DNA of 54,594 bases. Origin: Candidatus Taylorbacteria bacterium RIFCSPHIGHO2_02_FULL_43_32b (GTDB taxonomy: Bacteria; Patescibacteriota; Minisyncoccia; Phycocordibacterales; 2-02-FULL-43-11). The notes under the pieces are model-generated. The model was not told the origin of the DNA. It did not search any database and saw only the letters and a list, made by a program, of their open reading frames with translations. The DNA lies in contig MHRK01000019.1 of the NCBI GenBank assembly GCA_001820955.1, positions 1-54,594 on the forward strand, in the 5' to 3' direction. Position 1 is the stretch's first letter. The number at the start of each line of letters is the position of its first letter. Shown one piece after another: positions 14,089-50,511 of the stretch. Both the position numbers and the translations under genes were made by a program.

Positions 14089-14553
14089 AATGAATAATGT
14101 ATTACGAATTATGAATAATGCGGGGAAAAAGAACCAAAACACGGAAAGTTCATTAAATAAAATCAGCTTTTTTACTGACCTCAACGCATGGAAAGAAGGT
14201 CATAAATTAGTTTTGCTCATCTACAAATTGACCAAAAACTTCCCCTCAGACGAAAAATTTGCCCTAATAGATCAGATGCGAAGAGCAGTAATCTCTGTTA
14301 CTTCCAATATTGCCGAAGGTTTCAGCCGTCAATCTTACAAAGAAAAACTGCAATTTTACTCCATCGCCCTCGGTTCCGTTACTGAAATACAAAATCAACT
14401 ATTCACATCTCGAGATATCGGTTATTTATCTCAAGTAGATTTCCAAAAAACGCTGGATCAATCCATAATTACTCACAAGATAACTAACGGCTTGATTAAA
14501 AGTTGCAAAGGTTTTATTAACCATAATTCATAATTCTTTATTCATAATTCATA
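14089..14553 (+). mobile_element. IR-bounded mini-cassette A (four-helix-bundle cargo)
   Basis: Fills the whole gap between stop 14084 and start 14557. Perfect 13-nt inverted repeat: GAATTATGAATAA (14106-14118) and TTATTCATAATTC (14538-14550), within longer similar AT-rich arms. Confidence 0.65.
14090..14533 (+). CDS. Four-helix-bundle protein (23S rRNA intervening-sequence protein family)
   Basis: LNAWKEGHKLVLLIYKLTKNFPSDEKFALIDQMRRAVISVTSNIAEGFSR...SVTEIQNQL matches the family signature. Confidence 0.85.
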   Translation: MNNVLRIMNNAGKKNQNTESSLNKISFFTDLNAWKEGHKLVLLIYKLTKNFPSDEKFALIDQMRRAVISVTSNIAEGFSRQSYKEKLQFYSIALGSVTEIQNQLFTSRDIGYLSQVDFQKTLDQSIITHKITNGLIKSCKGFINHNS

Positions 14554-14556
14554 CTC

Positions 14557-14994
14557 ATGCGCTTCCAAGTTCCACAATTCATCGGGGTAGAGGACAAAGT
14601 TTTCGGTCCATTTACCGTCAAACAATTCGTCTATCTGGTAGGAGGCGGTGCTATTTGCTATCTCATCTACAGGCTTCTGCCCGTATTTTTAGCTGTCATT
14701 TTTTTGACCCCGGTGGCCGCTCTTTCGATTGCTCTGGCTTTTGTAAAAATAAACGGCAAACCTTTTATTTTTACCCTTGAAGCGGCCATAAAATACTTCA
14801 TGGGTACAAAATTATATCTCTGGAAAAGAGACAAAATTACACCCAAAAAGGGAGCGGAAAAAACCGAACCGGCAGACACGATGGTCAATATCGCCATGCC
14901 GAGCCTTTCCGAGAGCAAACTGAAAGATTTGACTTGGGCGCTCGACATCAACAAAAGTGCCAATCAACGAATGACTACGAATATTGACAAATAA
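14557..14994 (+). CDS. PrgI-family (VirB3-like) small membrane protein
   Basis: N-terminus VPQFIGVEDKVFGPFTVKQFVYL followed by two TM helices, 145 aa, upstream of VirB4. Last 11 codons are encoded by a cassette arm. Confidence 0.7.
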   Translation: MRFQVPQFIGVEDKVFGPFTVKQFVYLVGGGAICYLIYRLLPVFLAVIFLTPVAALSIALAFVKINGKPFIFTLEAAIKYFMGTKLYLWKRDKITPKKGAEKTEPADTMVNIAMPSLSESKLKDLTWALDINKSANQRMTTNIDK

Positions 14995-15558
14995 AGTTAA
15001 CGAATAAAAACACAAAAGGCAATACAAATAATATGGAGAGCGGGATTCAGCCGAACCAACTGCCACAAAAGCAGTCTCAAAAAGAAATTATCTACAAAGA
15101 ACTGTCTTTTAAAATAGTCGGGGTGCTCTTTTCTGTACATAACGAACTCGGTAGATTTGAAAAGGAAAAAAGGTACAGCGATCTTACAGAGCTTAAGCTT
15201 GGTGAAGCAAATCTTCAATACAGAAGGGAACTTAACATCGGCTCGAATGCAAATATCGCAGACTTTATCATAGAAAATTTGATACTTCTCGAACTTAAAG
15301 CAAAACCTTCCATCCTCAAGGAGGATTTTCGTCAAATCCAAAACTACCTTCAAAAATCACAGCTAAAATTAGGAATAATTGCTAACTTCCGAAATCGGTA
15401 TCTTAAACCTGTCCGCATTATAAGAATCAATAAATTCAAGCAATAGCAAAACCGACACTGTCAAAGTATAATGATGTGATGATCACTAATCACAATTTAT
15501 ATTCCGATTAGTTAAGTTAATTAGTTAAGATTCGCATCATTCGTATATTTGCACTTGC
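14962..15558 (+). mobile_element. IR-bounded mini-cassette B (GxxExxY cargo, CGAAT-type arms)
   Basis: Left arm AATCAACGAATGACTACGAATATTGACAAATAAAGTTAACGAATAAA (14962-15008). Right arm 15501-15558 reverse-complements to GCAAGTGCAAATATACGAATGATGCGAAT.... Next gene starts at 15562. Confidence 0.55.
15033..15446 (+). CDS. GxxExxY-family protein (PD-(D/E)xK-like)
   Basis: IIYKELSFKIVGVLFSVHNELG..E....Y, ADFIIENLILLELKA, QIQNYLQKSQLKLGIIANF are the family hallmarks. Confidence 0.8.
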   Translation: MESGIQPNQLPQKQSQKEIIYKELSFKIVGVLFSVHNELGRFEKEKRYSDLTELKLGEANLQYRRELNIGSNANIADFIIENLILLELKAKPSILKEDFRQIQNYLQKSQLKLGIIANFRNRYLKPVRIIRINKFKQ

Positions 15559-15561
15559 CTT

Positions 15562-16227
15562 ATGACTAGTAAGTCAACTCAAGATTTCGTTTCAATAAAA
15601 GAGATTCGAGATGGGGTGGTAATCCTCAAGGATAATTCGATGCGCCTCGTAATATTGACCACCTCGGTCAACTTTGCCTTGAAATCAGAAGACCTCCAAC
15701 AGGCCATAATCGCCCAATTTCAAAACTTCCTAAACTCTCTGGATTTTTCGGTGCAGATATTCATTCAATCGCGCCGCTTTGATATAGAACCCTATCTCGT
15801 CCAGCTTGAAGAACGCCACAAAAGCCAACTAAATGAACTGATGAAAATCCAAACGAGAGAGTATATCAATTTTATCCGCGATTTTACCGAGAACACAAAC
15901 ATCATGTCCAAACATTTTTTTGTTGTCATTCCATACGCCGCCTCGCTTTTATCGAAAGGAGGGGGAAGTGTCACGGACAAGATATCCAGTGCCGTTCCGA
16001 TGTCGTTTCTCGGAAAAAAAGAGGACCGGGCGGGCACAGCAAAAAAAACCGAAGAAAGCTTCTTGGATAATAAAATTCAACTTGAACAAAGAGCTTCCGT
16101 GGTGGAACAAGGACTACTCCGCGTCGGGCTCCGAACGGCACGTCTCGACACAGAAGAATTAATCGAGTTTTATTACAAAATGTTTAATCCTGGCGATCTG
16201 GCAAAGCCGGCCAAAGTCACGCAGTAA
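15562..16227 (+). CDS. VirB4 N-terminal-domain-like stand-alone protein
   Basis: TQDFVSIKEIRDGVVILKDNSMRLVILTTSVNFALKSEDLQQAII..FQNFLNSLDFSVQIF resembles the N-terminal domain of Gram-positive VirB4/TcpF/PrgJ-type ATPases; no P-loop. Confidence 0.5.
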   Translation: MTSKSTQDFVSIKEIRDGVVILKDNSMRLVILTTSVNFALKSEDLQQAIIAQFQNFLNSLDFSVQIFIQSRRFDIEPYLVQLEERHKSQLNELMKIQTREYINFIRDFTENTNIMSKHFFVVIPYAASLLSKGGGSVTDKISSAVPMSFLGKKEDRAGTAKKTEESFLDNKIQLEQRASVVEQGLLRVGLRTARLDTEELIEFYYKMFNPGDLAKPAKVTQ

Positions 16228-16257: not shown

Positions 16258-16704
16258 GCAAATTGAAAATGTAAATATCAAAATGCAAAATGACAGTGCA
16301 AAGTTTAAAAATGAATTTAAAAAAAGAGTCTACAGTTGGGTTTTAAAACTTGTTAAGTTTATAGATACATTGCCAAAGGATTCTACGAGCTCGGTAATGG
16401 GAAAGCAGTTGATTCGCAGTGGCACAAGCATTATTGCCAATTATACTGAAGCCACCTCGGCTAGTTCAAAAAAGGACTTCATTAATTTTTTTACCTATTC
16501 ACTAAAATCAGCTAACGAGTCTAAAGTTTGGCTTACTTTGCTTCGTGACACCGGAAAAGGAAGTGTAGAGGAGCTAAATTGGCTTTTAAGTGAACTCATA
16601 GAAATAGCCAATGTTCTAGCTTCTAGTATAATGACTATGAAGGGGAAAAGATGATTTAACATTTTTAATTGTCATTTTACATTTTGATTTTTTAATTTTG
16701 CATT
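16258..16704 (+). mobile_element. IR-bounded mini-cassette C (four-helix-bundle cargo, AAAATG-type arms)
   Basis: Left core ATCAAAATGCAAAATGACA (16277-16295) versus right core TGTCATTTTACATTTTGAT (16670-16688), 18/19 complementary. Right arm is nearly identical to the SET cassette arm. Confidence 0.65.
16283..16654 (+). CDS. Four-helix-bundle protein (23S rRNA intervening-sequence protein family)
   Basis: FKKRVYSWVLKLVKFIDTLPK..GKQLIRSGTSIIANYTEA..SKKDFINFF.YSLKSANESKVWL; ATG 16283 lies inside the left arm. Confidence 0.8.
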   Translation: MQNDSAKFKNEFKKRVYSWVLKLVKFIDTLPKDSTSSVMGKQLIRSGTSIIANYTEATSASSKKDFINFFTYSLKSANESKVWLTLLRDTGKGSVEELNWLLSELIEIANVLASSIMTMKGKR

Positions 16705-16750
16705 ATTTTGACCGACACATACATATAATTCGTATATTGGTAACGCCTCT

Positions 16751-19700
16751 ATGAGTTTATTAGACAAAATTTTTCCAAAGAAAGACGCCGGCGACTCTCC
16801 GCAAATCGCCTCTGTTTTGCCTGCCGATATATATGAGGCAGGGGCACTTGAACTCCGCGATGTTATCGCCCCATCTGCTCTCAAAGTCTCGCCCAAATCC
16901 ATAAACCTGGGAAATAAAATCGTTAGAACATATTTCGTCATATCCTATCCCCGCTTTCTGACCGAAGGCTGGTTTGCCCCGATAATCAACCTGGACAAAG
17001 TTTTTGATATTTCAATATTCATCCACCCCATTGATACGGCAAGGGTTCTCAAACAATTTCAGAAAAAGGTGGCCGAAGTCCAAAGTCAGATAAACGAAAG
17101 GGAAAAGAAAGGTTTTGTCAGAGACCCCATTCTCGAAACAGCTTACAACGACCTTGAAAAATTGAGAGACGACCTTATGCAGGCTCAAGAAAAAATGTTT
17201 GATGTCGGTCTTTACATGTCCATCTACGGAGAGTCAGACGAAGAGTTGGACAAAATTGAGACTGAGGTGAGATCCATACTCGAATCCAAGCTTGTTTATG
17301 TAAAACCGGCGCTTTTCCAGGAGGAACAGGCTTTCAGAAGCATCGCCCCTCTCGGCACGGACGAAATTATGGTACACACAAAGCTAAACTCCTCGCCACT
17401 TTCCAGCCTTTTTCCGTTCATTTCCTTCGATATGACTTCCGACAAAGGTATTCTTTACGGCATCAATCGGCACAATGCGAGTTTGGTGCTGTTCGACCGC
17501 TTTTCTCTCGAGAATTACAACAGCGTGACGCTTGCTCAATCTGGATCTGGAAAAAGCATAAAAGGCAACGAACCCGTCCTCATAAAACAAAATGGAAAAA
17601 TATCACTCCGACCAATAGGTAGTGTCGTCGACAAACTAATAAGAAAGAGGGGGGCAGTACAAATAGATGAAGAAATGGACGGGGTGATCGACCCAGGACT
17701 GGAAGTCTACAGCTTTGACAAAAATATGAAAGGCTCGTGGAGTAAAGTCAGTGTTGCCGCCAGGAAAATAGCCCCCAAGCAATTCTATCGTTTCAAAACA
17801 AAAAGCGGACGTGCTGTTGTAACGACTGGCGACCACAACATGTTGGTTTTACGAAACGGTGAAATTGTAGCCACAAAAAGTGATAATGTTGGGTTGGGAG
17901 AAGCCGTGCCCTTACCGAGATCTGTAGAAACAGGCGATAATTTCGACACACAAATTAATTTACTTGAACTTCTGAAAAACCGCCCAAATATATATGTTGC
18001 CGGCGCGGCAAAAGAAATAAAATTGCTTCAAAAAGAATACGAAGGAAAGATTGTTAACTCGCGATTTGATAAATATCTCTACAAGTACCACGCGGGGCGA
18101 AGAATACCGATTGCCTATTTCCTCAAACTCTTACGAGCATCAAACCACACACCACAAGCAGTGGAGATTAGCAAATGGCGTGTTATTTCATCGAGCGGTA
18201 CTGGCTCTCTCCCCGCCATTTTCCCAATTTCCAAGGAATTCATGAGGATCATCGGCTATATTATTTCCGAAGGTACCATTCGAAAAGAAGCTGTTATTAT
18301 CAGCAACACCGAAAAAGAAGTTTTGGACGACATTTCAGACTGCCTTAAAAAAATGGGGTTAACCTTCTTCAGAAATACCAAAAGCATCCGCGTGGGTTCT
18401 GTCGTTTTCGTAAACCTAATTCACGCTCTCGGTCTTTACAAAAAATCAGCCGGAAAATGTATCCCTGGGATCGCATGGGGGACATCTACACAAAGCATGG
18501 CGGCCTTGCTTTCATCATACTTTGAAGGTGACGGTGGAGTAGACGGACCGTCAATCACAGCGGTGTCCAAATCAAAACGTTTGATTTCTGAGCTGTCTTA
18601 TTTTTTGTTTTTCTTCGGCATCGTAGGCCGCGTTCATAAGAGGGAAAAAAAATACGTCAAAACTGGTAAAAAAAGAACTTTTTGGCATATTTCCATAAGC
18701 GGGCAATCGTCACTTAACAGTTTTGCTGAAAAAATTGGCTTTGTTTCTAAAAGAAAAAATGCGCTTCTAAGTTCTCTTCTGAACAAAAATGAGAATACAA
18801 ACGTGGACACCATACCAACACTTGGACAACTAGTTGAAGAATTGACATTAATTTTCCCATACGGGATAAACGGAACATCTAATTTTCAAAAAATTAAATG
18901 GTCTAGATTTGACCCCACTCCTAAATATCTCAGAAAGGCAACTGATGAACTGGAAGAGAAAATCGAGGAGTTCGTGCAACTTGGGCAAAGCATAAAAATA
19001 TTATCGCAATTGCCCAAACTTCACAACATCATAGCTATTGCCAAGGAAAACAAAGAAGTCAACACCAAATTATGGAATCTCCTCGGTTCGAGTTGGGCAT
19101 GGATGCGAAACGAGACTGGAGCACCTCGTGCAGAGAACGCTCTTGCTCTTATAGAAGCTGTAGGTCTCACCTCTCCTAGTGTATCCGCAATTAAAACCGC
19201 CGTGCACGACAATGCAATAGCTCTGCATTTGCCAATGAAACACATGGACGCATCTTTACGGAGCGCTATAACAATACGGCCAGAAAGCAACACTTCCTAT
19301 GAAATGCTCCAAAAAGCGGCCTCTTTTATATCGACAGCATACCAGGAATGGGAAAATAATCTGCCGCGTGTGAAGGAAATAATCTCCATTTTACGCACGC
19401 TTATCGAAAGCGAACTATTTTTTGACCCGATTACCAAAATCAACACCATAGAAAACAAAAGCGAAAAATATGTTTATGACCTGACGGTAGACAATGAAGT
19501 ATTCCTTGCCGGATACGGCGGGATGTTTGTTCATAATTCATACGCCACCAAGCTCGAAATATTGCGCTCTCTTATGTTCGATACGGAAGTTATCGTTATC
19601 GACCCCGAAAGGGAATACGAGCAGTTGGCTGAAGCCGCCGGCGGAAAATATTTCAACATTTCGCTTAATTCCGAACACCACATTAATCCCTTCGACCTTC

Positions 19701-20557
19701 CCGCCCCAAGAGAAGACGAGCAACCAAGTGACGTTCTACGCTCGCACATCATCAATTTAGTAGGATTGTTTCGTATAATGCTGGGCGGTCTTACTCCGGA
19801 AGAAGACGCTATCGTTGATCGCGCCATCACGGAAACATACGCCCTAAAAGACATTACTCCCGACGAAAATTTTGCCAATTCTGAACCGCCTCTCCTTTCG
19901 GATTTCGAGACAGTTTTGGCCGGAATGGAAGGGGCATCTTCTCTTCATGAGAGGCTGACGAAATACAGCCGCGGCACATGGTCAGGCTTTATCAACCAGC
20001 CGTCAAACATTTCAATCGACAGCAAATTCGTAGTCTTTTCAATCAGAGACATGGAAGATGAACTGAAAGCCGTGGCAACATATCTCATTACAAACCACAT
20101 CTGGGCGGCAATCCGAAAAACCTTAAAAAGACGCCTTCTCATCATCGATGAGGCCTGGTGGATGATGAAATCTGAAGACACGGCCTCATTCTTGGCGCGC
20201 ATGGTAAAGCGCGGAAGAAAGTATTATTTGGGAGTCGCAACCATCACCCAAGACGTTGATGATTTCTTGAAATCTCCTTACGGCACTCCGATTATTACAA
20301 ACTCGTCTATGCAGATATTGCTCAAACAGTCGCCCACAACAATCGATCGTCTGCAACAAATTTTCCAGCTAACAGACGAAGAAAAGTATCTGCTTCTTGA
20401 ATCGGCCATAGGGGAGGGGATATTCTTCGTCGGCCTCAAACACGTAGCCATAAAAATCATCGGCTCCTATACCGAAGATCAGATTATCACGTCCGACCCC
20501 CACCAACTGCTAACAATCAAAAAAGCCAAGGAAGAGTTGCGCGCGACAGAAGGATGA
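16751..20557 (+). CDS. virB4: VirB4/TrbE-type T4SS ATPase interrupted by an in-frame intein
   Basis: Gram-positive-type VirB4 N-domain; Walker A AQSGSGK|S-YATK split by the intein; Walker B LLIIDEAWWM; ITQDVDDF. Confidence 0.85.
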   Translation: MSLLDKIFPKKDAGDSPQIASVLPADIYEAGALELRDVIAPSALKVSPKSINLGNKIVRTYFVISYPRFLTEGWFAPIINLDKVFDISIFIHPIDTARVLKQFQKKVAEVQSQINEREKKGFVRDPILETAYNDLEKLRDDLMQAQEKMFDVGLYMSIYGESDEELDKIETEVRSILESKLVYVKPALFQEEQAFRSIAPLGTDEIMVHTKLNSSPLSSLFPFISFDMTSDKGILYGINRHNASLVLFDRFSLENYNSVTLAQSGSGKSIKGNEPVLIKQNGKISLRPIGSVVDKLIRKRGAVQIDEEMDGVIDPGLEVYSFDKNMKGSWSKVSVAARKIAPKQFYRFKTKSGRAVVTTGDHNMLVLRNGEIVATKSDNVGLGEAVPLPRSVETGDNFDTQINLLELLKNRPNIYVAGAAKEIKLLQKEYEGKIVNSRFDKYLYKYHAGRRIPIAYFLKLLRASNHTPQAVEISKWRVISSSGTGSLPAIFPISKEFMRIIGYIISEGTIRKEAVIISNTEKEVLDDISDCLKKMGLTFFRNTKSIRVGSVVFVNLIHALGLYKKSAGKCIPGIAWGTSTQSMAALLSSYFEGDGGVDGPSITAVSKSKRLISELSYFLFFFGIVGRVHKREKKYVKTGKKRTFWHISISGQSSLNSFAEKIGFVSKRKNALLSSLLNKNENTNVDTIPTLGQLVEELTLIFPYGINGTSNFQKIKWSRFDPTPKYLRKATDELEEKIEEFVQLGQSIKILSQLPKLHNIIAIAKENKEVNTKLWNLLGSSWAWMRNETGAPRAENALALIEAVGLTSPSVSAIKTAVHDNAIALHLPMKHMDASLRSAITIRPESNTSYEMLQKAASFISTAYQEWENNLPRVKEIISILRTLIESELFFDPITKINTIENKSEKYVYDLTVDNEVFLAGYGGMFVHNSYATKLEILRSLMFDTEVIVIDPEREYEQLAEAAGGKYFNISLNSEHHINPFDLPAPREDEQPSDVLRSHIINLVGLFRIMLGGLTPEEDAIVDRAITETYALKDITPDENFANSEPPLLSDFETVLAGMEGASSLHERLTKYSRGTWSGFINQPSNISIDSKFVVFSIRDMEDELKAVATYLITNHIWAAIRKTLKRRLLIIDEAWWMMKSEDTASFLARMVKRGRKYYLGVATITQDVDDFLKSPYGTPIITNSSMQILLKQSPTTIDRLQQIFQLTDEEKYLLLESAIGEGIFFVGLKHVAIKIIGSYTEDQIITSDPHQLLTIKKAKEELRATEG
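17555..19537 (+). mobile_element. Intein (661 aa) with LAGLIDADG homing endonuclease in the VirB4 Walker A motif
   Basis: Ser1 after GSGK; block B TTGDHNMLV; LAGLIDADG-like motifs FMRIIGYIISEGT and LLSSYFEGDGGV; ends GGMFVHN with +1 Ser. Splicing restores GSGKSYATK. Confidence 0.85.
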
Positions 20558-24445: not shown

Positions 24446-24603
24446 TTCTTGCCCCCACTGCGTCTTTGCCCATACCTCAAATCATAGACCTCCTAGCAAC
24501 TTTCATTTCTTTTTTATTCTTTCTTTTTTATTCCCAGTTGCAAACCCTCAAACCCCACGAACCCGATGGCCTCCAACCCTTTTGCCCATACCGACACCTC
24601 ACC

Positions 24604-24629
24604 ATAAATCTAACTATAGTTACGTTTAT
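24604..24629. repeat. Palindrome P1 (imperfect) upstream of the wHTH/Cas2-fold gene
   Basis: ATAAATCTAACTATAGTTACGTTTAT: 11/13 self-complementary half-sites, 24/26 identical to the P2 core, ends 34 nt before the ATG at 24663. Confidence 0.7.
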
Positions 24630-24662
24630 CGAGACCCCTATTAGAAAATTTAATTCAAAAGT

Positions 24663-25286
24663 ATGGGAAATATCGAATTTGAAGCCAAAAAAATCAGAAC
24701 CAGGCGAAGCATAAGAAAGGCAATTTTGGCTTCTATCGCGGTGGCTGGTTTTTTGAGTATAGCGGCCGTTGCGCCAAACGCCATGAGTATTCTTGAATTG
24801 GTAAGCGGTAAGAAAAAGAAAACCCCCAAATTTGCTATCACAAATTCTTTTAACAGACTTTTGGAAAGTGGGTATATCGAATTAAAAAATAAAGGAGGAC
24901 AAAAGAAAGTTGAAATAACCGGAAAAGGACGACTACTCCTAGCGAGAATTGGCGGGGGAAATTATGTACTTAAAAAGCCCTGGCGATGGGATAAACGTTG
25001 GAGAATAATCCTATTCGACATACCAGAAAATAGACGTCCGGTGAGGGTGAAACTCTGGAAAATGCTTCGCGCACTTCACTTTTACCCCATGCAAGACAGC
25101 GCGTGGGTTTATCCATACGACTGCGAAGACGTCATCAAACTCATAAAAACTGACCTGCACGTTAGTTTTGGAGTTATTTATATCATTGCGGAATCTATTG
25201 AGAACGACCGCAGGATTAGAGATTTTTTCGGACTCAATAAAAATTTGAAACACCTCAAAAAAATAGCTGCATTCATAACATCCTAA
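24663..25286 (+). CDS. PaaX-like protein: winged-helix domain plus Cas2-fold domain
   Basis: FNRLLESGYIELKNKGGQKKVEITGKGR (wHTH-like); WDKRWRIILFDIPENRRPVRVKLWKMLRALHFYPMQDSAWVYPYD matches the Cas2/PaaX-middle-domain pattern. Confidence 0.6.
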   Translation: MGNIEFEAKKIRTRRSIRKAILASIAVAGFLSIAAVAPNAMSILELVSGKKKKTPKFAITNSFNRLLESGYIELKNKGGQKKVEITGKGRLLLARIGGGNYVLKKPWRWDKRWRIILFDIPENRRPVRVKLWKMLRALHFYPMQDSAWVYPYDCEDVIKLIKTDLHVSFGVIYIIAESIENDRRIRDFFGLNKNLKHLKKIAAFITS

Positions 25287-25309
25287 AATGGAAGATCCCC
25301 CAAACTCTA

Positions 25310-25351
25310 GCCCTCAACATAAATGTAACTATAGTTACATTTATGTTGAGG
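25310..25351. repeat. Palindrome P2 (42-nt perfect)
   Basis: CCCTCAACATAAATGTAACTATAGTTACATTTATGTTGAGGG, perfectly self-complementary, 24 nt after the stop of the wHTH/Cas2-fold gene, followed by TGTTTTC. Confidence 0.85.
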
Positions 25352-25508
25352 GGTGTTTTCAAATCAAGCGGAAAAAAGTCTGCCGCAGAAAAAATCAACA
25401 TCGAGGAGTTAACTGATTAATTGAATTAATAGATTTCGTTACATTAACTCATGCAAAATACCTGAGTGAAAGAGTGTAGGATAAGAAACAATAGAAAAAT
25501 AAGTAGCT

Positions 25509-35420: not shown

Positions 35421-35427
35421 GGCTCAA

Positions 35428-35739
35428 GTGTAAAATGCAAAAATCAAAATGTAAAATTTATTGGAAGCGGGGAGAATGGCTACATAATAAATAGTGCGCC
35501 CGGTGGGGCGCTCATATCCAACCCGCCTGACGGCGAGGCAGGCAAAGTTTTCCCGGTGCCTCGCCTAATACCCCGCCGAGGTAATCCGAGGGTACCCCTT
35601 AGGGCGGGGATATGGACGAGGCAAATTTTATTGGGAGCGGCCAGAGGACTCTACGTTCGGCATGCGGATATTAACGATAAAATAAGATTTTAAAATTTTG
35701 CATTGTCATTTTGCACTTTGATATTTAAATTTTGCATTA
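35428..35739. mobile_element. AAAATG-type IR pair enclosing non-coding GC-rich cargo (gene-less cassette)
   Basis: Left GTGTAAAATGCAAAAATCAAAATGTAAAATTT (35428-35459); right 35691-35739 reverse-complements to TAATGCAAAATTTAAATATCAAAGTGCAAAATGACAATGCAAAATTTTA. No ORF over 20 codons between them. Confidence 0.55.
35457..35667. repeat. GC-rich dispersed structured repeat (copy c: one full unit plus the 5' module of a second)
   Basis: Unit 35457-35632 ends GGGCGGGGATATGGACGAGGCAAATTTTATT, followed directly by TTGGGAGCGGCCAGAGGACTC. Several GC hairpins, e.g. GGCGAGGC...GCCTCGCC. Confidence 0.7.
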
Positions 35740-37422: not shown

Positions 37423-37450
37423 TTGACCTAATCTAATTTGAGCATAGAAT
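37423..37450 (+). promoter_or_regulatory. Sigma70-type promoter with no ORF behind it
   Basis: TTGACC (37423-37428), 16-nt spacer, TAGAAT (37445-37450). A second GGTTGACCTA lies at 37380-37389. Confidence 0.4.
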
Positions 37451-37552
37451 AAGTTTGTTGCTTGTGGAAGTAGGGTTCAATTCCCTCACTGTGCCGCAAC
37501 GGTAAATGTCGTCTCTTTGGCGATTTAGTCCGGTCTTCAAGTGATAAGTTCT

Positions 37553-37643
37553 AATCAACGAATCCATACGAATCTTAGCGAATAGTTTTAGCGAATACAT
37601 TTGTTAAGGTCATTCGCAAAATTCGTACATTTGTTGACTTGCA
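37553..37643. repeat. Empty CGAAT-type arm pair (cassette arms back to back, no cargo)
   Basis: Left AATCAACGAATCCATACGAATCTTAGCGAATAG... (from 37553). Right 37610-37643 reverse-complements to TGCAAGTCAACAAATGTACGAATTTTGCGAATGA. Same family as 4750-4797 and cassette B. Confidence 0.55.
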
Positions 37644-45346: not shown

Positions 45347-46141
45347 ATGAAAAAACAGGTTAGGTTAGGGTGTTTATTGGTCGCCGTCCTTTGGTCGGCG
45401 AGTGTGTGGTCGCAAACGGCCACAAATGTTCCACCACAGAGTGGTGTGGACGAAGTCGCTTTGCTCCGACAACAGGTCTCAGACTTGCAGGCGGCGTTAA
45501 GAAGAGCCACTAATGTGGTGGCATTGCCTGCGGTTTCAGTGGGGAGTGCTGTGGAGACTATGCCGCCGGAAGTGCCGAGCGTTTCGCCTGAAGTCGAGAT
45601 AAACAAGTCGGTTCAGCCGGTTCAGTCTTTGGTTCCGCTCACTTCTTCTCCTCAAGGGTCGAAGGCGCTCGAGGGAGCTACTGACCCCAACAGCCCGTAC
45701 TTGTTTGCTCAGGCGGGCGACGCGTATGTCGCTGTCCGTAAAGGAGAGCTGAACGCGATGGTTCAAGGCATGTCCAACCAGACTTCGCTTGTTATGAGCG
45801 ACTTCACTGCGGGGCCGGACGGTGTGCCGGTAAAACGGGTTAGAGGCGCATCAAGAGGGGCCAATCAGAGCTCCATAAATAACTCTGGCCACATAACGAA
45901 CTTCAGTTTTGAAAACTGCAAGGATTTCGTGGTGAACAACGGAGTTACGCCGAGTGGACAGGTGGAGATGGGGGATCTTTCCTCCATGTCGGGTTACGGC
46001 GGTGGTTTCGGGTCGGGGACTGTGGTTCCCGGGAATCGCCTCGGAAGTGTCCGCGCTGTTCCAAATGCCAGGGAAAAATGGTTTTTGGATCAGATCAAGC
46101 TCAACAATATGCGCAGATTGGTGAAAGCAAGCGCCTATTAG
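45347..46141 (+). CDS. Secreted hypothetical protein (GC-rich block)
   Basis: Signal peptide MKKQVRLGCLLVAVLWSASVWSQ; short coiled coil; Gly-rich C-terminal part. Confidence 0.55.
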   Translation: MKKQVRLGCLLVAVLWSASVWSQTATNVPPQSGVDEVALLRQQVSDLQAALRRATNVVALPAVSVGSAVETMPPEVPSVSPEVEINKSVQPVQSLVPLTSSPQGSKALEGATDPNSPYLFAQAGDAYVAVRKGELNAMVQGMSNQTSLVMSDFTAGPDGVPVKRVRGASRGANQSSINNSGHITNFSFENCKDFVVNNGVTPSGQVEMGDLSSMSGYGGGFGSGTVVPGNRLGSVRAVPNAREKWFLDQIKLNNMRRLVKASAY

Positions 46142-46161
46142 CAAGGAGCAAATGGTGGAGT

Positions 46162-46190
46162 GCGTCGGAATAATTTCCGGCGCCTTTTTT
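46162..46190 (+). terminator. Rho-independent terminator
   Basis: 9-bp stem GCGTCGGAA / TTCCGGCGC (one G-U), loop TAAT, T6 run 46185-46190. Confidence 0.7.
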
Positions 46191-46424
46191 ATAACATGTA
46201 AAAACCTCCGGCTTTAGCAGATTTGTACATTTTAAGCGCAGTGTTTAGACAATCACCTTGGGTCGAATTAAAGAACCAAAGGTGATTTTAACCATTAACA
46301 GACGTCTGTATCAGCAGTCCCATGCCACATGGGTATGTGATTACTTTTACATTGTTTTACGCGCCCAAGGAAGGGTAGCAGAGGGCTGTTTTTCCTTACC
46401 TGTGCAGAAAAACAGCAAAATCTT

Positions 46425-46466
46425 TCACTCATTTTAACATAGCTATAGCTATGTTAAAATGAGTGA
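46425..46466. repeat. Palindrome P4 (42-nt perfect)
   Basis: TCACTCATTTTAACATAGCTATAGCTATGTTAAAATGAGTGA. Shares the central CTATAG with P1/P2. Followed by a G-run and GGTGTTCGC. Confidence 0.8.
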
Positions 46467-46513
46467 GTGGAGGGGGGCTAGGTGTTCGCTGAAGGCACTT
46501 AATACCATTGACG

Positions 46514-46664
46514 TTTATTGGAATGGCCAGAAGACTCTGCCGAAGCGTACCTCGGCGAGTACACTCGCAATCAGGTACTCCTAGTACCCCTTGCCCGCCC
46601 GCCATCGCTAGCCGCTCAGGCGTTGCGGGCGGGGGGCGGGGATATGGACGAGACAAATTTTATT
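46514..46664. repeat. GC-rich dispersed structured repeat (copy d)
   Basis: Starts TTTATTGGAATGGCCAGAAGACTC, ends GGGGCGGGGATATGGACGAGACAAATTTTATT. Internal hairpins GCCGA..TCGGC, GGTACT..AGTACC, CCCGCCCGC..GCGGGCGGG. Confidence 0.7.
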
Positions 46665-46894
46665 AAAACTTTTGAAATCACGGTTTGTCATTTTTATAAT
46701 TTGCGTACTTTGTTATGTTACTCAACTTGGACGTTCGGCCATGTACGGTAACAAAAAATTGTAAAGAAAAGCGGCGAATGGCGATGCGAGATAAACGCAA
46801 GTGTTTTTCGCTCTGCAAAAAACTTTTGCAGTAAGTCGTAAGGGTTGGAGGTTGTATAGGTTGTTTGTGCGGTTTATTGTCGTACAATTGAAAG

Positions 46895-49333
46895 ATGGCT
46901 GATATTAATTCTGGGCGATCAAAAAAGAGACTGGTTTTGCTTGATGCTCACGCCATTATTCACAGGGCGTATCACGCTCTGCCGGAATTTGCTTCATCAA
47001 AAGGGGAACCAACGGGTGCGCTTTACGGCCTCATTACGATGCTTATAAAGATTGTGAACGATTTAAAGCCGGATTGGGTTATCGCCGCATACGATTTGCC
47101 GAAGCCAACGCATCGCCACGAAGTTTACAAGGAATACAAACAAGGCCGAGCAAAAACGGACGACGCTCTTGTTTCACAACTCATCAAATCAAGGGATCTT
47201 CTGTCCGCGCTTTCCATTCCCATTTATGACAAGGAGGGATTTGAAGCGGACGATATTTTGGGAACCATTGTTGAAATACTGAAAGATAATGAGGATGTTG
47301 AAATAATTATTGCCTCAGGTGATATGGATACACTACAGCTCGTGGATGGCAATAAGGTTAAAGTGTATACGTTAAAGAAAGGGTTGTCCGATACCATAAT
47401 GTATGACGAAGAAGCCGTAATAAAACGGTTCGGATTTGAGCCAAAACTTTTGCCAGATTATAAAGGTCTTCGAGGCGACCCGTCAGATAATATTATTGGA
47501 ATTAAGGGAATTGGCGAAGTGACGGCTTCCTCTCTCATTAAGGAGTTTGGATCGATTGAGGGAATTTACGAAGCTTTAGAAAAGGGAGAAAAACCATTTC
47601 TTGATGCGGGCATAAAGGAACGCATCATTAAACTTCTTCGAGAAAACAAAGAAGAGGCGGAATTTTCGAAAATTTTGGCCTTAATAAGAAGGGATGCTCC
47701 AATTGATTTTGTTTTGCCGGAAAAACGATGGGCGGAAGAAGTGGATTTGAAAAAGACAGACCAAGCATTTTCGGAATACGAGTTTAGGACACTTGGCGCC
47801 AGGCTTCGGGATTCACTTAAAGCAAACGGTAGGGGTCAAGAGGGGGGCAGTCAAATTGGGGAGATTATTCCAAAAGAAGTGCGGCCGGCGGGGGATTCTG
47901 CAGAATTTCTGGAGTCGCCTTACGTTTTAGATCCAAAAGTTTTTCGCGAGGCGTCAATTATGTTGTGGATTTTAAATTCTTCAATTACTAATCCGACTAT
48001 CGAGGACATCAAGGTTTACTCCAGAAAAGAAACCTTGGGCGAGGCCAGGGATTATTTATTGTCGGAATTAAAAAAACAAGGTCTGTTCAGGGTGTACGAA
48101 GAAATAGAAAGACCGCTGATTCCGGTTATAGAAAAAATGAACGGGCATGGAGTGGTGGTGGATACGGAATATCTTAAGAAACTTGGCAAGGAATATCGGG
48201 CAAGTTTGGAAAAATTGGAAAAGCAGATATGGAAAGAGGCAGGAGTGCAGTTTAATATCGCGTCTCCAAAACAGTTGGGAGAAATCCTTTTTGTGAAAAT
48301 GGGAATGAAGGCTAAAAATCAGAAAAAAACGGCGGGGGGAGCGCTTTCGACAAAAGAGTCGGAGTTGGCCAAACTTGCCGATGAGAATCCAATTATCGGC
48401 AAAATTTTGGAGTACAGGGAATTGGCCAAACTTCTCGGAACTTATATTGATAATGTTATTCCGATGGTCGGTCTTGATGGGAAGCTTCGGGCTAATTTTT
48501 TGTCAGCCGGCACCACAACAGGAAGGATGTCCTCCGAAAACCCGAATCTCCAAAATATCCCGCATCACAGCGATCTTGGTATTAGGATTAGAAACGCTTT
48601 TGTCGCAGAGGAAAAATCCAAGTTGGTCGCTTTCGATTATTCTCAAATGGAACTTCGGATCGCGGCTTTTTTGGCGAACGACGAAGAACTGATCAAAATT
48701 TTTAAGGAGGGCAAGGATGTGCATTCGGGCGTGGCGGCGGCCGTCTTTAATGTACCTCCCGAAAAGGTTGATAAAGAGATGAGGAGGAGGGCCAAAGTAA
48801 TTAATTTTGGCGTGATGTATGGAATGGGGGTGTCGGCGCTTCAGAAAAATTTATCCAGCACCAGAGAAGAAGCAAAAATTTTTTATGATTCATACTTTAA
48901 AACTTTTGCCGGTTTGGCAAAGTATTTGGACGAGATAAAGAAAGAAACGGCCAGGAAAGGTTATACCGAAACGGTTTTCGGCCGCCGCCGCTATTTCGAG
49001 GGTATCAATTCCAAGTTGCCGTTTATCAAGGCGGCGGCCGAAAGGATGGCCATCAACGCGCCGATTCAAGGAACAGAAGCTGATATTATTAAGATTGCCA
49101 TGGTTAGAGTTGATGAATGGATTGGCAAGAACGATTTAAGTGACAAGGTATATCTCGAGCTCCAAGTGCATGATGAGCTGGTTTACGAAATAAAATCGGA
49201 AATGGTTGATAAAGTTGTGCCGGAAATAAAAGAAATTATGGAGAATGTTTTGCCGCTTTCCGAAACCCGCGGGGTGCCTATCAAGACGGACGTGTCGGTT
49301 GGGAAGAACTGGGGGGAGATGGAGAAAATGTAA
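46895..49333 (+). CDS. polA: DNA polymerase I (5' nuclease plus family A polymerase)
   Basis: 5'-3' exonuclease N-domain; motif A DYSQMELRIAA, motif B RRRAKVINFGVMYG, motif C QVHDELV. Confidence 0.93.
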   Translation: MADINSGRSKKRLVLLDAHAIIHRAYHALPEFASSKGEPTGALYGLITMLIKIVNDLKPDWVIAAYDLPKPTHRHEVYKEYKQGRAKTDDALVSQLIKSRDLLSALSIPIYDKEGFEADDILGTIVEILKDNEDVEIIIASGDMDTLQLVDGNKVKVYTLKKGLSDTIMYDEEAVIKRFGFEPKLLPDYKGLRGDPSDNIIGIKGIGEVTASSLIKEFGSIEGIYEALEKGEKPFLDAGIKERIIKLLRENKEEAEFSKILALIRRDAPIDFVLPEKRWAEEVDLKKTDQAFSEYEFRTLGARLRDSLKANGRGQEGGSQIGEIIPKEVRPAGDSAEFLESPYVLDPKVFREASIMLWILNSSITNPTIEDIKVYSRKETLGEARDYLLSELKKQGLFRVYEEIERPLIPVIEKMNGHGVVVDTEYLKKLGKEYRASLEKLEKQIWKEAGVQFNIASPKQLGEILFVKMGMKAKNQKKTAGGALSTKESELAKLADENPIIGKILEYRELAKLLGTYIDNVIPMVGLDGKLRANFLSAGTTTGRMSSENPNLQNIPHHSDLGIRIRNAFVAEEKSKLVAFDYSQMELRIAAFLANDEELIKIFKEGKDVHSGVAAAVFNVPPEKVDKEMRRRAKVINFGVMYGMGVSALQKNLSSTREEAKIFYDSYFKTFAGLAKYLDEIKKETARKGYTETVFGRRRYFEGINSKLPFIKAAAERMAINAPIQGTEADIIKIAMVRVDEWIGKNDLSDKVYLELQVHDELVYEIKSEMVDKVVPEIKEIMENVLPLSETRGVPIKTDVSVGKNWGEMEKM

Positions 49334-49786
49334 AATTAAAAAATCAAAATGAAAAATGACGATGTAAAATATAGAATGAAAGAAATCAATGGGGTAATTG
49401 TAGGAAAATCCAATGGAAAAGGGGAGGGGTTGTTTGCCGCGAGACCATTTGAGGCAGGTGAAATAATTCTTTCTTATGATAATTGGAAGCTAAAGGGAAA
49501 AAAGCATTTTCCGGATGGAGATGAACATGTTGATTATCAAGGCAGGGGAAAATATGTTAGTAGCAATCATCCCTATTCATACACCAATCATTCTTGCGAC
49601 CCAAATTCATATATTAAGTTTAGGACGATTGCCAGTGGTACGGTCTTCGCACAAAGAGATATCAAAGAAGGCGAGGAGATAACTTATGATTACGCCTTCA
49701 TTGATATGGATGGTTTCGGATTAAATACGGAAAGAAATTTTAAAATTTTAAGTTGTCATTTTTCATTTTGATTTTTTAATTTTACA
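49329..49786 (+). mobile_element. IR-bounded mini-cassette D (SET-domain cargo), 32-bp perfect inverted repeats
   Basis: TGTAAAATTAAAAAATCAAAATGAAAAATGAC (49329-49360) is the exact reverse complement of 49755-49786. It overlaps the polA stop, and holA starts 9 nt after the right arm. Confidence 0.8.
49349..49771 (+). CDS. SET-domain protein (putative lysine methyltransferase)
   Basis: GEGLFAARPFEAGEII, NHSCDPN, GEEITYDY. The start codon and the last codons are encoded by the cassette arms. Confidence 0.8.
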   Translation: MKNDDVKYRMKEINGVIVGKSNGKGEGLFAARPFEAGEIILSYDNWKLKGKKHFPDGDEHVDYQGRGKYVSSNHPYSYTNHSCDPNSYIKFRTIASGTVFAQRDIKEGEEITYDYAFIDMDGFGLNTERNFKILSCHFSF

Positions 49787-49794
49787 TTTAGTTC

Positions 49795-50511
49795 ATGCTC
49801 TATCTAATTTATGGTAACGATTGGCAAAAAGCTCGCGCAAAAGCTCGTGAGGTTTTGGATGTGCTGAAGAAAAAAAAGCCGGATGCCACCGTCGTTTCTC
49901 TTGAAGAGGGGGGAGTAAGTGAAGCTAAAATTGACGAATTGTCGGGAAGTCAGGGTCTATTCGAAAGAAAATTTATAGTTTTCGGTGATCGCGTCTGCGC
50001 CGATAGCCAAAATGCCGAGATTGTAGCGGATAAATTGGAAGTTATCGGCAAGTCGGAAAATGTTTTTGTGTTTTTGGAGGAAGGTGTGAAGGCTCCGCTT
50101 CTTAAAATCTTTGAGAAATATGCGGCAAAAGTTCAGGAATTTGCCAAAATCGAAAAAAAAGAAAGATTTAATTCTTTTTCTCTTGCTGATGCTCTCGGCG
50201 AAAGAAATAAACAAAAGCTTTGGATTTTATACCAAGCCGCTCTATCCGAAGGACTTTCTCCCGAAGAATTGCATGGCACTTTGTTTTGGCAGGTAAAAAG
50301 TCTTCGAGCGGCCGCTATTGCGAAGAGTGCCGATGAGGCGGGGCTTAAGCCTTTTGCCTGGACTAAAGCCAAAAGATTTTTGAGTAGATGGGATATTAAG
50401 GAGCTCGAAAATGTTAGTCAGAATTTGGTTTCTCTTTACCATGATTCGAGGAGGGGAGAGCATGAACTTGAGATTGCCCTTGAAAAATGGATATTGGATC
50501 TGCCGGTCTAA
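49795..50511 (+). CDS. holA: DNA polymerase III delta subunit-like (short form)
   Basis: N-terminus MLYLIYGNDWQKA... and length/helical C-part resemble HolA. Weak assignment. Confidence 0.45.
   Translation: MLYLIYGNDWQKARAKAREVLDVLKKKKPDATVVSLEEGGVSEAKIDELSGSQGLFERKFIVFGDRVCADSQNAEIVADKLEVIGKSENVFVFLEEGVKAPLLKIFEKYAAKVQEFAKIEKKERFNSFSLADALGERNKQKLWILYQAALSEGLSPEELHGTLFWQVKSLRAAAIAKSADEAGLKPFAWTKAKRFLSRWDIKELENVSQNLVSLYHDSRRGEHELEIALEKWILDLPV

Follow-up and report, generated by a model that had tools for sequence, protein, structure and literature searches.

The intervening sequences (IVSs) of ribosomal RNA (rRNA) genes and the small S23p/IVP open reading frame (ORF) associated with them have, to our knowledge, remained unexplained since the early 1990s, and the publications we consulted regard them as belonging to rRNA genes. 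In Coxiella, the IVS is 444 nt long; it possesses a terminal stem of 28 bp together with an S23p ORF, and RNase III cuts it midway along the stem (PMC4990558). The rRNA genes of bacteria of the Candidate Phyla Radiation (CPR) contain short uncharacterised insertions and IVP ORFs, guessed to be IVSs in a 2024 survey, which is silent on copies outside rRNA genes and on other cargo (PMC11270868). Here we describe an element situated between polA and a holA-like gene in a 54,594-nt stretch of DNA, hereafter the window, which corresponds to contig MHRK01000019.1 of Candidatus Taylorbacteria bacterium RIFCSPHIGHO2_02_FULL_43_32b (assembly GCA_001820955.1). The element consists of two long inverted arms that enclose a gene for a SET-domain protein, and we consider it probable that it (49326-49789) is a copy of a family of palindromic IVS-type elements in which the IVP gene has been replaced by the SET gene. 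The kind of element appears to be known and the SET cargo to be new; the abundance of the family outside rRNA genes, its conserved arms and its exchange of cargo also appear to be undescribed, our literature search having found no description of the arm family outside rRNA genes or with other cargo.

The SET unit is 464 bp long and is arranged with its neighbours as follows.

polA, positions 46895 to 49333, forward strand: 812 aa, with Pfam DNA_pol_A (1e-134) and 5'-3' exonuclease domains.
Left arm (terminal inverted repeat) of the SET unit, positions 49326 to 49377, forward strand: nhmmer match to the arm model at 49327-49375 (E = 5e-7).
SET-domain ORF, positions 49349 to 49771, forward strand: 140 aa (131 aa from ATG 49376); Pfam SET, 6e-16.
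Cargo-specific DNA of the SET unit, positions 49382 to 49732, forward strand: SET core only, delimited by arm alignment to within a few bases.
Right arm (terminal inverted repeat) of the SET unit, positions 49738 to 49789, reverse strand: nhmmer match at 49788-49737 (E = 7e-8).
holA-like gene (DNA polymerase III delta), positions 49795 to 50511, forward strand: 238 aa; NCBIfam holA 1e-15 and Pfam DNA_pol3_delta_C 3e-5, both profile scores being under the curated cut-offs.

A first, sequence-only reading of the window had noticed that 49329-49360 is the exact reverse complement of 49755-49786, and BLAST extended this perfect match to 35 bp (49326-49360 / 49755-49789). A repeat finder matched the arms imperfectly over 52 nt each, with 88% identity, and the 32-mer found no match in any of 100 dinucleotide-preserving shuffles of the window. 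That reading had also placed the polA stop codon and the SET ATG with its MKND codons in the left arm, and the SET stop codon in the right one, all of which we confirm. The same applies to the start of the holA-like gene, whose ATG (49795) is the ninth base after the 32-bp right arm and lies 5 nt beyond the element. The last polA codons and the TAA stop (49331-49333) are located in the outermost part of the left arm; the encoded C-terminus, ...WGEMEKM followed by the stop, aligns with ...WGQMEKMRT and stop of relatives, which also keep the N-terminus MLYLI of the holA-like protein. Farther inside the left arm there are two in-frame ATG codons (49349 and 49376), and the SET stop TGA occupies 49769-49771 within the right arm. 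The left arm can be aligned with the arms of other loci, including a hairpin within a 23S rRNA gene. The cargo has a GC content of 39.6%, compared with 43.3% for the window, and a hidden Markov model (HMM) of IVP run against the six frames of the SET unit gave no match, hence no IVP remnant. Ten contigs of ENA and JGI samples, assembled independently and up to 15.9 kb long, share the polA-SET-holA arrangement; the only difference among them is a single-nucleotide polymorphism (SNP) at position 49752, where the window has G and sister strains have A.

Alignment with homologues showed the SET motifs GxG, NHSCDPN and EEITYDY in the encoded protein. An exhaustive search of 1.84 billion representatives produced 1196 homologues, 150 of them listed and 14 close ones compared. 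The closest homologue outside the species is ~49% identical. Similarity to other SET proteins begins near residue 13, a position that matches the native N-terminus of those proteins, and the arms encode residues 1-9 (MKNDDVKYR) and about 129-140. The ORF ends in these arm-encoded residues 14 aa past YDY, exactly where homologues of sufficient length have xCxCGSxxCR, and misses the post-SET motif CxCGxxxCR. Among the homologues compared, this motif occurs in those of 160-190 aa and in most of those of 110-135 aa. Since it is found wherever the protein is long enough, its absence here is an apparent truncation and not an ancestral minimal design. The SET gene is fused in frame to the arm-encoded start, cut before the post-SET motif, and reads into the right arm. 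None of the 14 homologues (of 150 listed, 1196 in all) begins or ends with arm-encoded residues. An AlphaFold2 model had a mean predicted local distance difference test (pLDDT) score of 70.5, with a confident core and both arm-encoded ends below 50, and its best match among solved structures was vSET (3kma; TM-score of 0.70, normalised to vSET), followed by MLL1 SET domains. Like the window protein, vSET of PBCV-1 (PDB 3kma) is a SET core of ~120 aa without the post-SET zinc motif, whereas the close sequence homologues of the window protein have CxCGxxxCR wherever they are long enough. Judging from the model and the motifs, the protein could be either a working minimal SET domain or a dead fragment; nothing was found in favour of the effector-type role that the sequence-only reading had evoked for it. 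Two homologue loci considered as further cassettes (L256 and L257) turned out to be ordinary genes without arms, and an apparent SET variant (L255 / P0002) to be a scaffold that joins the SET 5' part to a foreign piece across an N gap, yielding a spurious 88-aa protein.

The 32-mer is not unique to this site, whereas its uniqueness would have refuted the cassette according to the sequence-only reading: the arm occurs at two other places in the window, with different cargo, and at hundreds of public loci. BLAST and the arm HMM resolved the repeats of the 54.6-kb window into exactly three pairs of convergent arms, which belong to one family but each enclose different cargo. A mismatch-tolerant search located a third copy of the 32-mer at 16671-16702, where it forms the right arm of an IVP unit, with 2 mismatches to the SET arm over 32 positions. 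The two sibling units comprise:

IVP sibling element, positions 16260 to 16705, forward strand: arms at 16261-16312 and 16654-16704 (nhmmer matches).
Four-helix-bundle/IVP ORF, positions 16283 to 16654, forward strand: 123 aa, starting at the arm ATG; PF05635 23S_rRNA_IVP 1e-19, TIGR02436 8e-24.
Non-coding sibling element, positions 35426 to 35739, no strand assigned: between ruvC and yebC, with arms at 35427-35457 and 35687-35738.

The insert of the ruvC-yebC element (35458-35686) is GC-rich and includes a direct repeat (AAUUUAUUGGAAGCGG / AAUUUUAUUGGGAGCGG), and its predicted fold is well structured. The IVP HMM found no remnant in this unit, and Rfam no family in either the arms or the insert, with gathering or with E-value thresholds; the insert may be a candidate small RNA of unrecognised type. 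Both sibling units are predicted to fold with a terminal stem like that of the SET unit, although weaker (z = -2.6 and -2.35).

Several other features accompany the IVP element. It parts a TraC-N-like ORF (15562-16227) from an ORF (16751-20557) whose product, a TraG/VirB4-like ATPase of 1268 aa, contains a LAGLIDADG intein. A second IVP gene (147 aa, PF05635 1e-34) is found at 14090-14552 within a different inverted repeat made of GAATTAT/GAATAAT heptads (14090-14120, 14522-14552). A GxxExxY / PD-(D/E)XK ORF (15033-15446; TIGR04256 6e-16) lies between 20-nt inverted repeats of 85% identity (14955-14974 / 15537-15556).

The distribution of the arm in public data was examined with a 21-nt degenerate core, AAWATCAAARTGNAAAATGAC. 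It matched at least 120 loci in species-representative genomes and at least 119 in JGI metagenomes, whereas by our own estimate chance would yield ~4 matches in the genome collection at uniform composition, or a few tens if all genomes were AT-rich. A single match among 2.9 million viral contigs had flanks that were not arm-like and was dismissed as chance. In 255 distinct copies, positions outside the searched pattern were also conserved, defining a block of ~52 nt that starts at a sharp outer boundary, (A/T)AAT(G/T)N..., and shows an autocorrelation peak at lag 7; the consensus is a run of AAAATGN heptads. CPR/Patescibacteria lineage names, belonging to many classes, accounted for 77 of the 120 listed genome loci, the element being very common in these ultra-small groundwater bacteria. 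Scored with an HMM built from the pattern matches, a full-length arm was present at 25 of the 43 genome loci with other or unspecified labels, and at 178 of all 239 listed loci (genomes plus metagenomes).

Pairing each arm with its best inverted partner downstream sorted the elements into size classes. The commonest form (~46 among the listed loci) is a hairpin-only unit of 90-140 bp. Another class, with at least 14 members of 431-455 bp, encodes an IVP of 123-125 aa that starts at the arm ATG, with the N-terminus M-Q/K/E-N-D-x-x-K-F-K-N-E-F-K-K-R-L-Y... and its first ~10 codons in the left arm. This four-helix-bundle cargo is 23S_rRNA_IVP / TIGR02436, related to Avd. Deletion intermediates exist, such as a truncated IVP (L194), and the bare 90-140-bp hairpins are probably internal-deletion derivatives of the full-size form. 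The largest regular form encodes IVP only, and larger 'pairs' enclose ordinary genes. Cargo other than IVP between single arm pairs was found in L153 (464 bp, with a 129-aa ORF of the glyoxalase family, Pfam 5e-6) and in L136 (543 bp, 144-aa ORF). A pyrophosphatase gene (L127) and a GroES gene (L034) were discarded as cassette cargo, each being placed between two complete hairpins.

An inverted repeat (score >=31) flanked 24 of 25 IVP ORFs in the fetched loci, compared with 2.3% of the 1601 other ORFs of 90-200 aa, and being part of a cassette is a general property of IVP genes. The heptad-type arms differ between divergent IVP subfamilies, the second IVP of the window (14090-14552) being an example, and there seems to be one arm type per subfamily. 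The IVP gene evolves under purifying selection, with a median ratio of nonsynonymous to synonymous substitutions (dN/dS) of ~0.07 in the 6 pairs that are unsaturated at synonymous sites. Between copies, the 42 arm-encoded nucleotides are 84% identical and the rest of the IVP ORF 67%, and the arms are therefore constrained as nucleic acid. Hairpins of other repeat families are nested in the loops of some copies (L171, L246, L118, L090). One of these nested families is GC-rich, and its translation yields '...AKAGIQ...'-like peptides. The loops of hairpins seem to be preferred sites of insertion. High flanking-inverted-repeat scores were also obtained in the fetched loci for small GIY-YIG ORFs and for ORFs that look DUF559-like by eye. 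In L083, L084, L086, L178 and L222, a single arm is located at the 5' end of an ordinary gene or within that end, as an in-frame 'MQND...' extension or a new start; by eye, the genes concerned include glycosyltransferase, NADH-dehydrogenase-like, glycyl-tRNA synthetase (GlyRS) and Fpg-like ones.

Some copies of the family reside in rRNA genes, where they were located by conserved rRNA motifs and then with Rfam. Locus L218 contains two hairpins within its match to the large-subunit rRNA (655-776 and 1593-1706), each inside a larger local stem. In L039 (~840-930) and L155, the hairpins lie between the peptidyl-transferase region and the sarcin-ricin loop, and that of L189 (~2500-2640) is upstream of position 515 within a 16S gene. 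The SET copy itself is not in an rRNA gene.

Comparison with relatives suggested that the SET unit is young. Between polA and holA, relatives with 75% identical polA (L011 / L012) have a 72-aa ORF, that with 71% (L013) a 134-nt spacer with ACGCTTT repeats, and those with 70% (L014 / L015) a 359-aa PEP-utilizer gene. No SET gene and no arm of the SET family was detected at the junction of these 70-75% relatives, and the inverted repeats there are too weak to be accepted as cassettes. Conversely, all conspecific contigs carry the SET gene at this position, and only conspecific strains do. The insertion or formation of the element appears recent, at the species level, and the SET gene at polA-holA is best read as passenger DNA of the element and not as a conserved part of a replication operon. 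A SET gene shared by all relatives at this place without arm-like repeats elsewhere, which would have told against the sequence-only reading, is thus not what the relatives display, and its description of the locus as a cassette bounded by inverted repeats gains from the recurrence of the arm elsewhere and from the relatives that lack SET at the junction. Its expectation that removing the cassette would leave polA and holA adjacent found no counterpart, as no relative has the two genes in direct adjacency. Elsewhere in the assembly of L012 the arm family is present (L089). In relatives, the ruvC-yebC spacer contains hairpins of other heptad types and not the element of the window.

The surroundings of polA also vary among strains. 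Sister strains (L001-L004) are 99.6% identical to the window from polA onwards and unrelated to it upstream (window 45347-46895). In them, the upstream region encodes a reverse transcriptase (RVT_1), accompanied in L002 by bAvd, and looks like a diversity-generating retroelement. In the window, it comprises a GC-richer 264-aa ORF, secreted-looking with a signal peptide recognised by eye, and a 750-nt ORF-free stretch that contains a perfect 42-bp palindrome (21 + 21, no spacer) at 46425-46466.

The long duplex envisaged by the sequence-only reading was recovered in the predicted fold, with its perfect part corrected from 32 to 35 bp: the RNA from 49310 to 49805 is predicted to form a terminal stem of ~60 pairs, with a minimum free energy of -142.8 kcal/mol (z = -7.1). 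The SNP at 49752 converts a G.U pair of the predicted stem in the window into A-U in sister strains, so that pairing is kept or improved. A promoter/terminator scan of the region detected 4 promoter-like sites, compared with 2.9 expected by chance, and no terminator in the arms. The motif TGTAAAAT in the arm was rejected as an extended -10 promoter because its TG abuts the hexamer, a non-canonical spacing, and the number of such sites does not exceed that of shuffles.

Several observations weigh against an IVS-type element with exchanged cargo. No target-site duplication was seen at the outer ends of 62 arm pairs or of the three window copies. No transposase or other mobility enzyme was identified, although no dedicated transposase search was made. 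The SET unit is found at one genomic site only, no arm-flanked SET gene occurs elsewhere among the 14 close homologues (of 150 listed and 1196 in all), and the protein, which lacks its post-SET cysteine motif, is possibly a dead fragment. Because the arm HMM derives from the pattern matches themselves, there is some circularity in the numbers of full-length arms, and the loci with non-CPR labels possibly derive from mis-binned contigs. Finally, the rnc signature was not found in the window and related contigs, which represent a partial genome.

Three other explanations have to be considered. The first, which we regard as possible but unlikely, is that the SET gene was a resident of the locus and that no cassette ever existed: hairpins would have inserted upstream of the gene and in its 3' part, their inner halves would have been lost, and the remaining arms would have been homogenised by gene conversion. 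Bare hairpins of the family do often flank ordinary genes, as for GroES (L034) and pyrophosphatase (L127), some arms coincide with the 5' ends of normal genes or lie within those ends, the SET gene is truncated exactly where the right arm starts, and the polA-holA junction is variable in relatives. However, this scenario needs two insertions, two deletions and one conversion, and leaves one left and one right arm with no trace of the inner partners. The 464 bp of the unit are close to the size of IVP units and the same as that of the glyoxalase unit (L153), the in-frame fusion to the arm start falls at the native N-terminus of SET, and no sampled relative has SET at the site.

According to the second explanation, which we hold to be quite improbable, the arms are intergenic hairpins maintained by the host, comparable to repetitive extragenic palindromic (REP) sequences and serving as terminators, RNA stabilisers or protein-binding sites, and SET is an ordinary accessory gene regulated in this way. 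The occurrence of the same arms at several positions inside rRNA genes, the nesting of hairpins in the loops of other hairpins, the internal-deletion intermediates (the truncated IVP of L194) and the nucleotide conservation across many CPR classes and some other phyla are all difficult to accommodate in such a regulatory role, and so is a promoter/terminator scan not above chance. It would nonetheless agree with the lack of target-site duplication and transposase, with arms more conserved than synonymous sites, with the very tight abutment of elements on start and stop codons, and with the other heptad-type hairpins of orthologous ruvC-yebC spacers. The last explanation, an assembly artefact in which the palindrome mis-joined a SET fragment between polA and holA, is scarcely credible: palindromes can mislead assemblers, and in the scaffold L255 two pieces are indeed mis-joined, an N gap falling inside SET, but the window's layout is the same in 10 contigs from different samples and pipelines (ENA and JGI entries whose contigs are named in different styles), with one SNP, and is therefore no assembly artefact.

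If the SET unit is, as we favour, an IVS-type element with replaced cargo, its expression can be outlined from the predicted stem and the position of the codons. We infer that it would be co-transcribed with polA and holA, and that its arms would then pair, perfectly over 35 bp and over ~60 bp when wobble pairs are included, so that the duplex would hide the stop codon of polA as well as both the start and the stop codon of SET. RNase III would cut this stem as in rRNA IVSs, separating the RNAs of polA, the cassette and holA. We propose that the family is tolerated in operons and rRNA genes because its stem would be cut in this way. Translation of SET might be coupled to that of polA, when ribosomes ending polA open the stem (the distance from the polA stop to the ATG is 15 nt), or might start after cleavage at ATG 49376, at the inner edge of the stem.

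A broader interpretation can be advanced only tentatively, its components being, when taken together, an unlikely conjunction. IVS-type elements would not be an oddity of rRNA genes; they would constitute a general platform for cassettes, spreading horizontally among CPR bacteria, with swappable small-gene cargo. The arms would provide a start codon and a stem for 'excision' at the RNA level, making insertion harmless in rRNA genes and in packed operons. The Avd-like IVP would be the maintenance or mobility factor of the platform itself and may act on the RNA released by RNase III, possibly together with a reverse transcriptase. Swaps of cargo so far would have involved SET, the glyoxalase-family protein and the 144-aa protein. 

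Independently of this broader interpretation, three findings alter the picture of IVSs as a feature of rRNA genes: across CPR lineages, one arm family has many copies between ordinary genes, its arms are conserved at the nucleotide level beyond coding need, and IVP is under purifying selection yet replaceable. IVSs thereby become a tractable family of mobile or selfish cassettes, and substrates for the study of RNase III processing and of IVP-arm binding.

Two additional features were recorded elsewhere in the window. At 24594-25354, two similar self-palindromic sites with the core AACTATAGTT flank a PaaX-like ORF (24663-25286) and resemble operators rather than element ends. An adenosylcobalamin (AdoCbl) riboswitch (37439-37590; Rfam 53 bits, above gathering) precedes a 621-aa ORF.

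Among known systems, the family is most similar to the 23S IVSs of Coxiella burnetii and Leptospira, with 444 nt in Coxiella and 431-464 bp here. Both have complementary termini that join in a long stem, a small PF05635 ORF in canonical copies and a patchy, apparently horizontal distribution, and members of the present family do occur in 23S and 16S genes. The SET copy departs from rRNA IVSs in being located between protein genes, in carrying SET instead of IVP and in having arms that supply stop and start codons to the neighbouring ORFs; moreover, RNase III cleavage has been demonstrated for the Coxiella IVS, whereas for the SET element the pairing of the stem is predicted. The in-frame single arms at ordinary genes recall the in-frame insertion of Rickettsia palindromic elements.

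The Correia/nemis miniature inverted-repeat transposable elements of Neisseria are many-copy palindromes of intergenic spacers that are co-transcribed with genes and whose hairpin is a substrate of RNase III; they duplicate a TA target and are not known to carry an ORF. The present family shares with them short palindromic units, terminal inverted repeats and many intergenic copies, but it has no known sequence relation to them, shows no target duplication in 62 arm pairs and encodes a conserved protein in its full-size form. In the mobile insertion cassettes of the Bacillus cereus group, the terminal repeats of IS231 enclose a passenger gene and the IS231 transposase acts in trans. They resemble the SET unit in that a passenger gene occupies the position of the gene proper to the element; their repeats are tied to a known transposase, whereas none was recognised for this family, without a dedicated search. 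Integron cassettes are, like the SET unit, small promoter-less units with a single ORF and an imperfect palindrome. They possess a single 3' attC site and depend on an integrase and attI. Of the ORFs of the window that were examined, none was noticed to encode an integrase, no systematic search having been made. In contrast, the SET ORF lies between two symmetrical arms, with polA and holA as neighbours, and these terminal inverted repeats are common to many dispersed copies, with three pairs in 54.6 kb and at least 120 plus at least 119 public loci.

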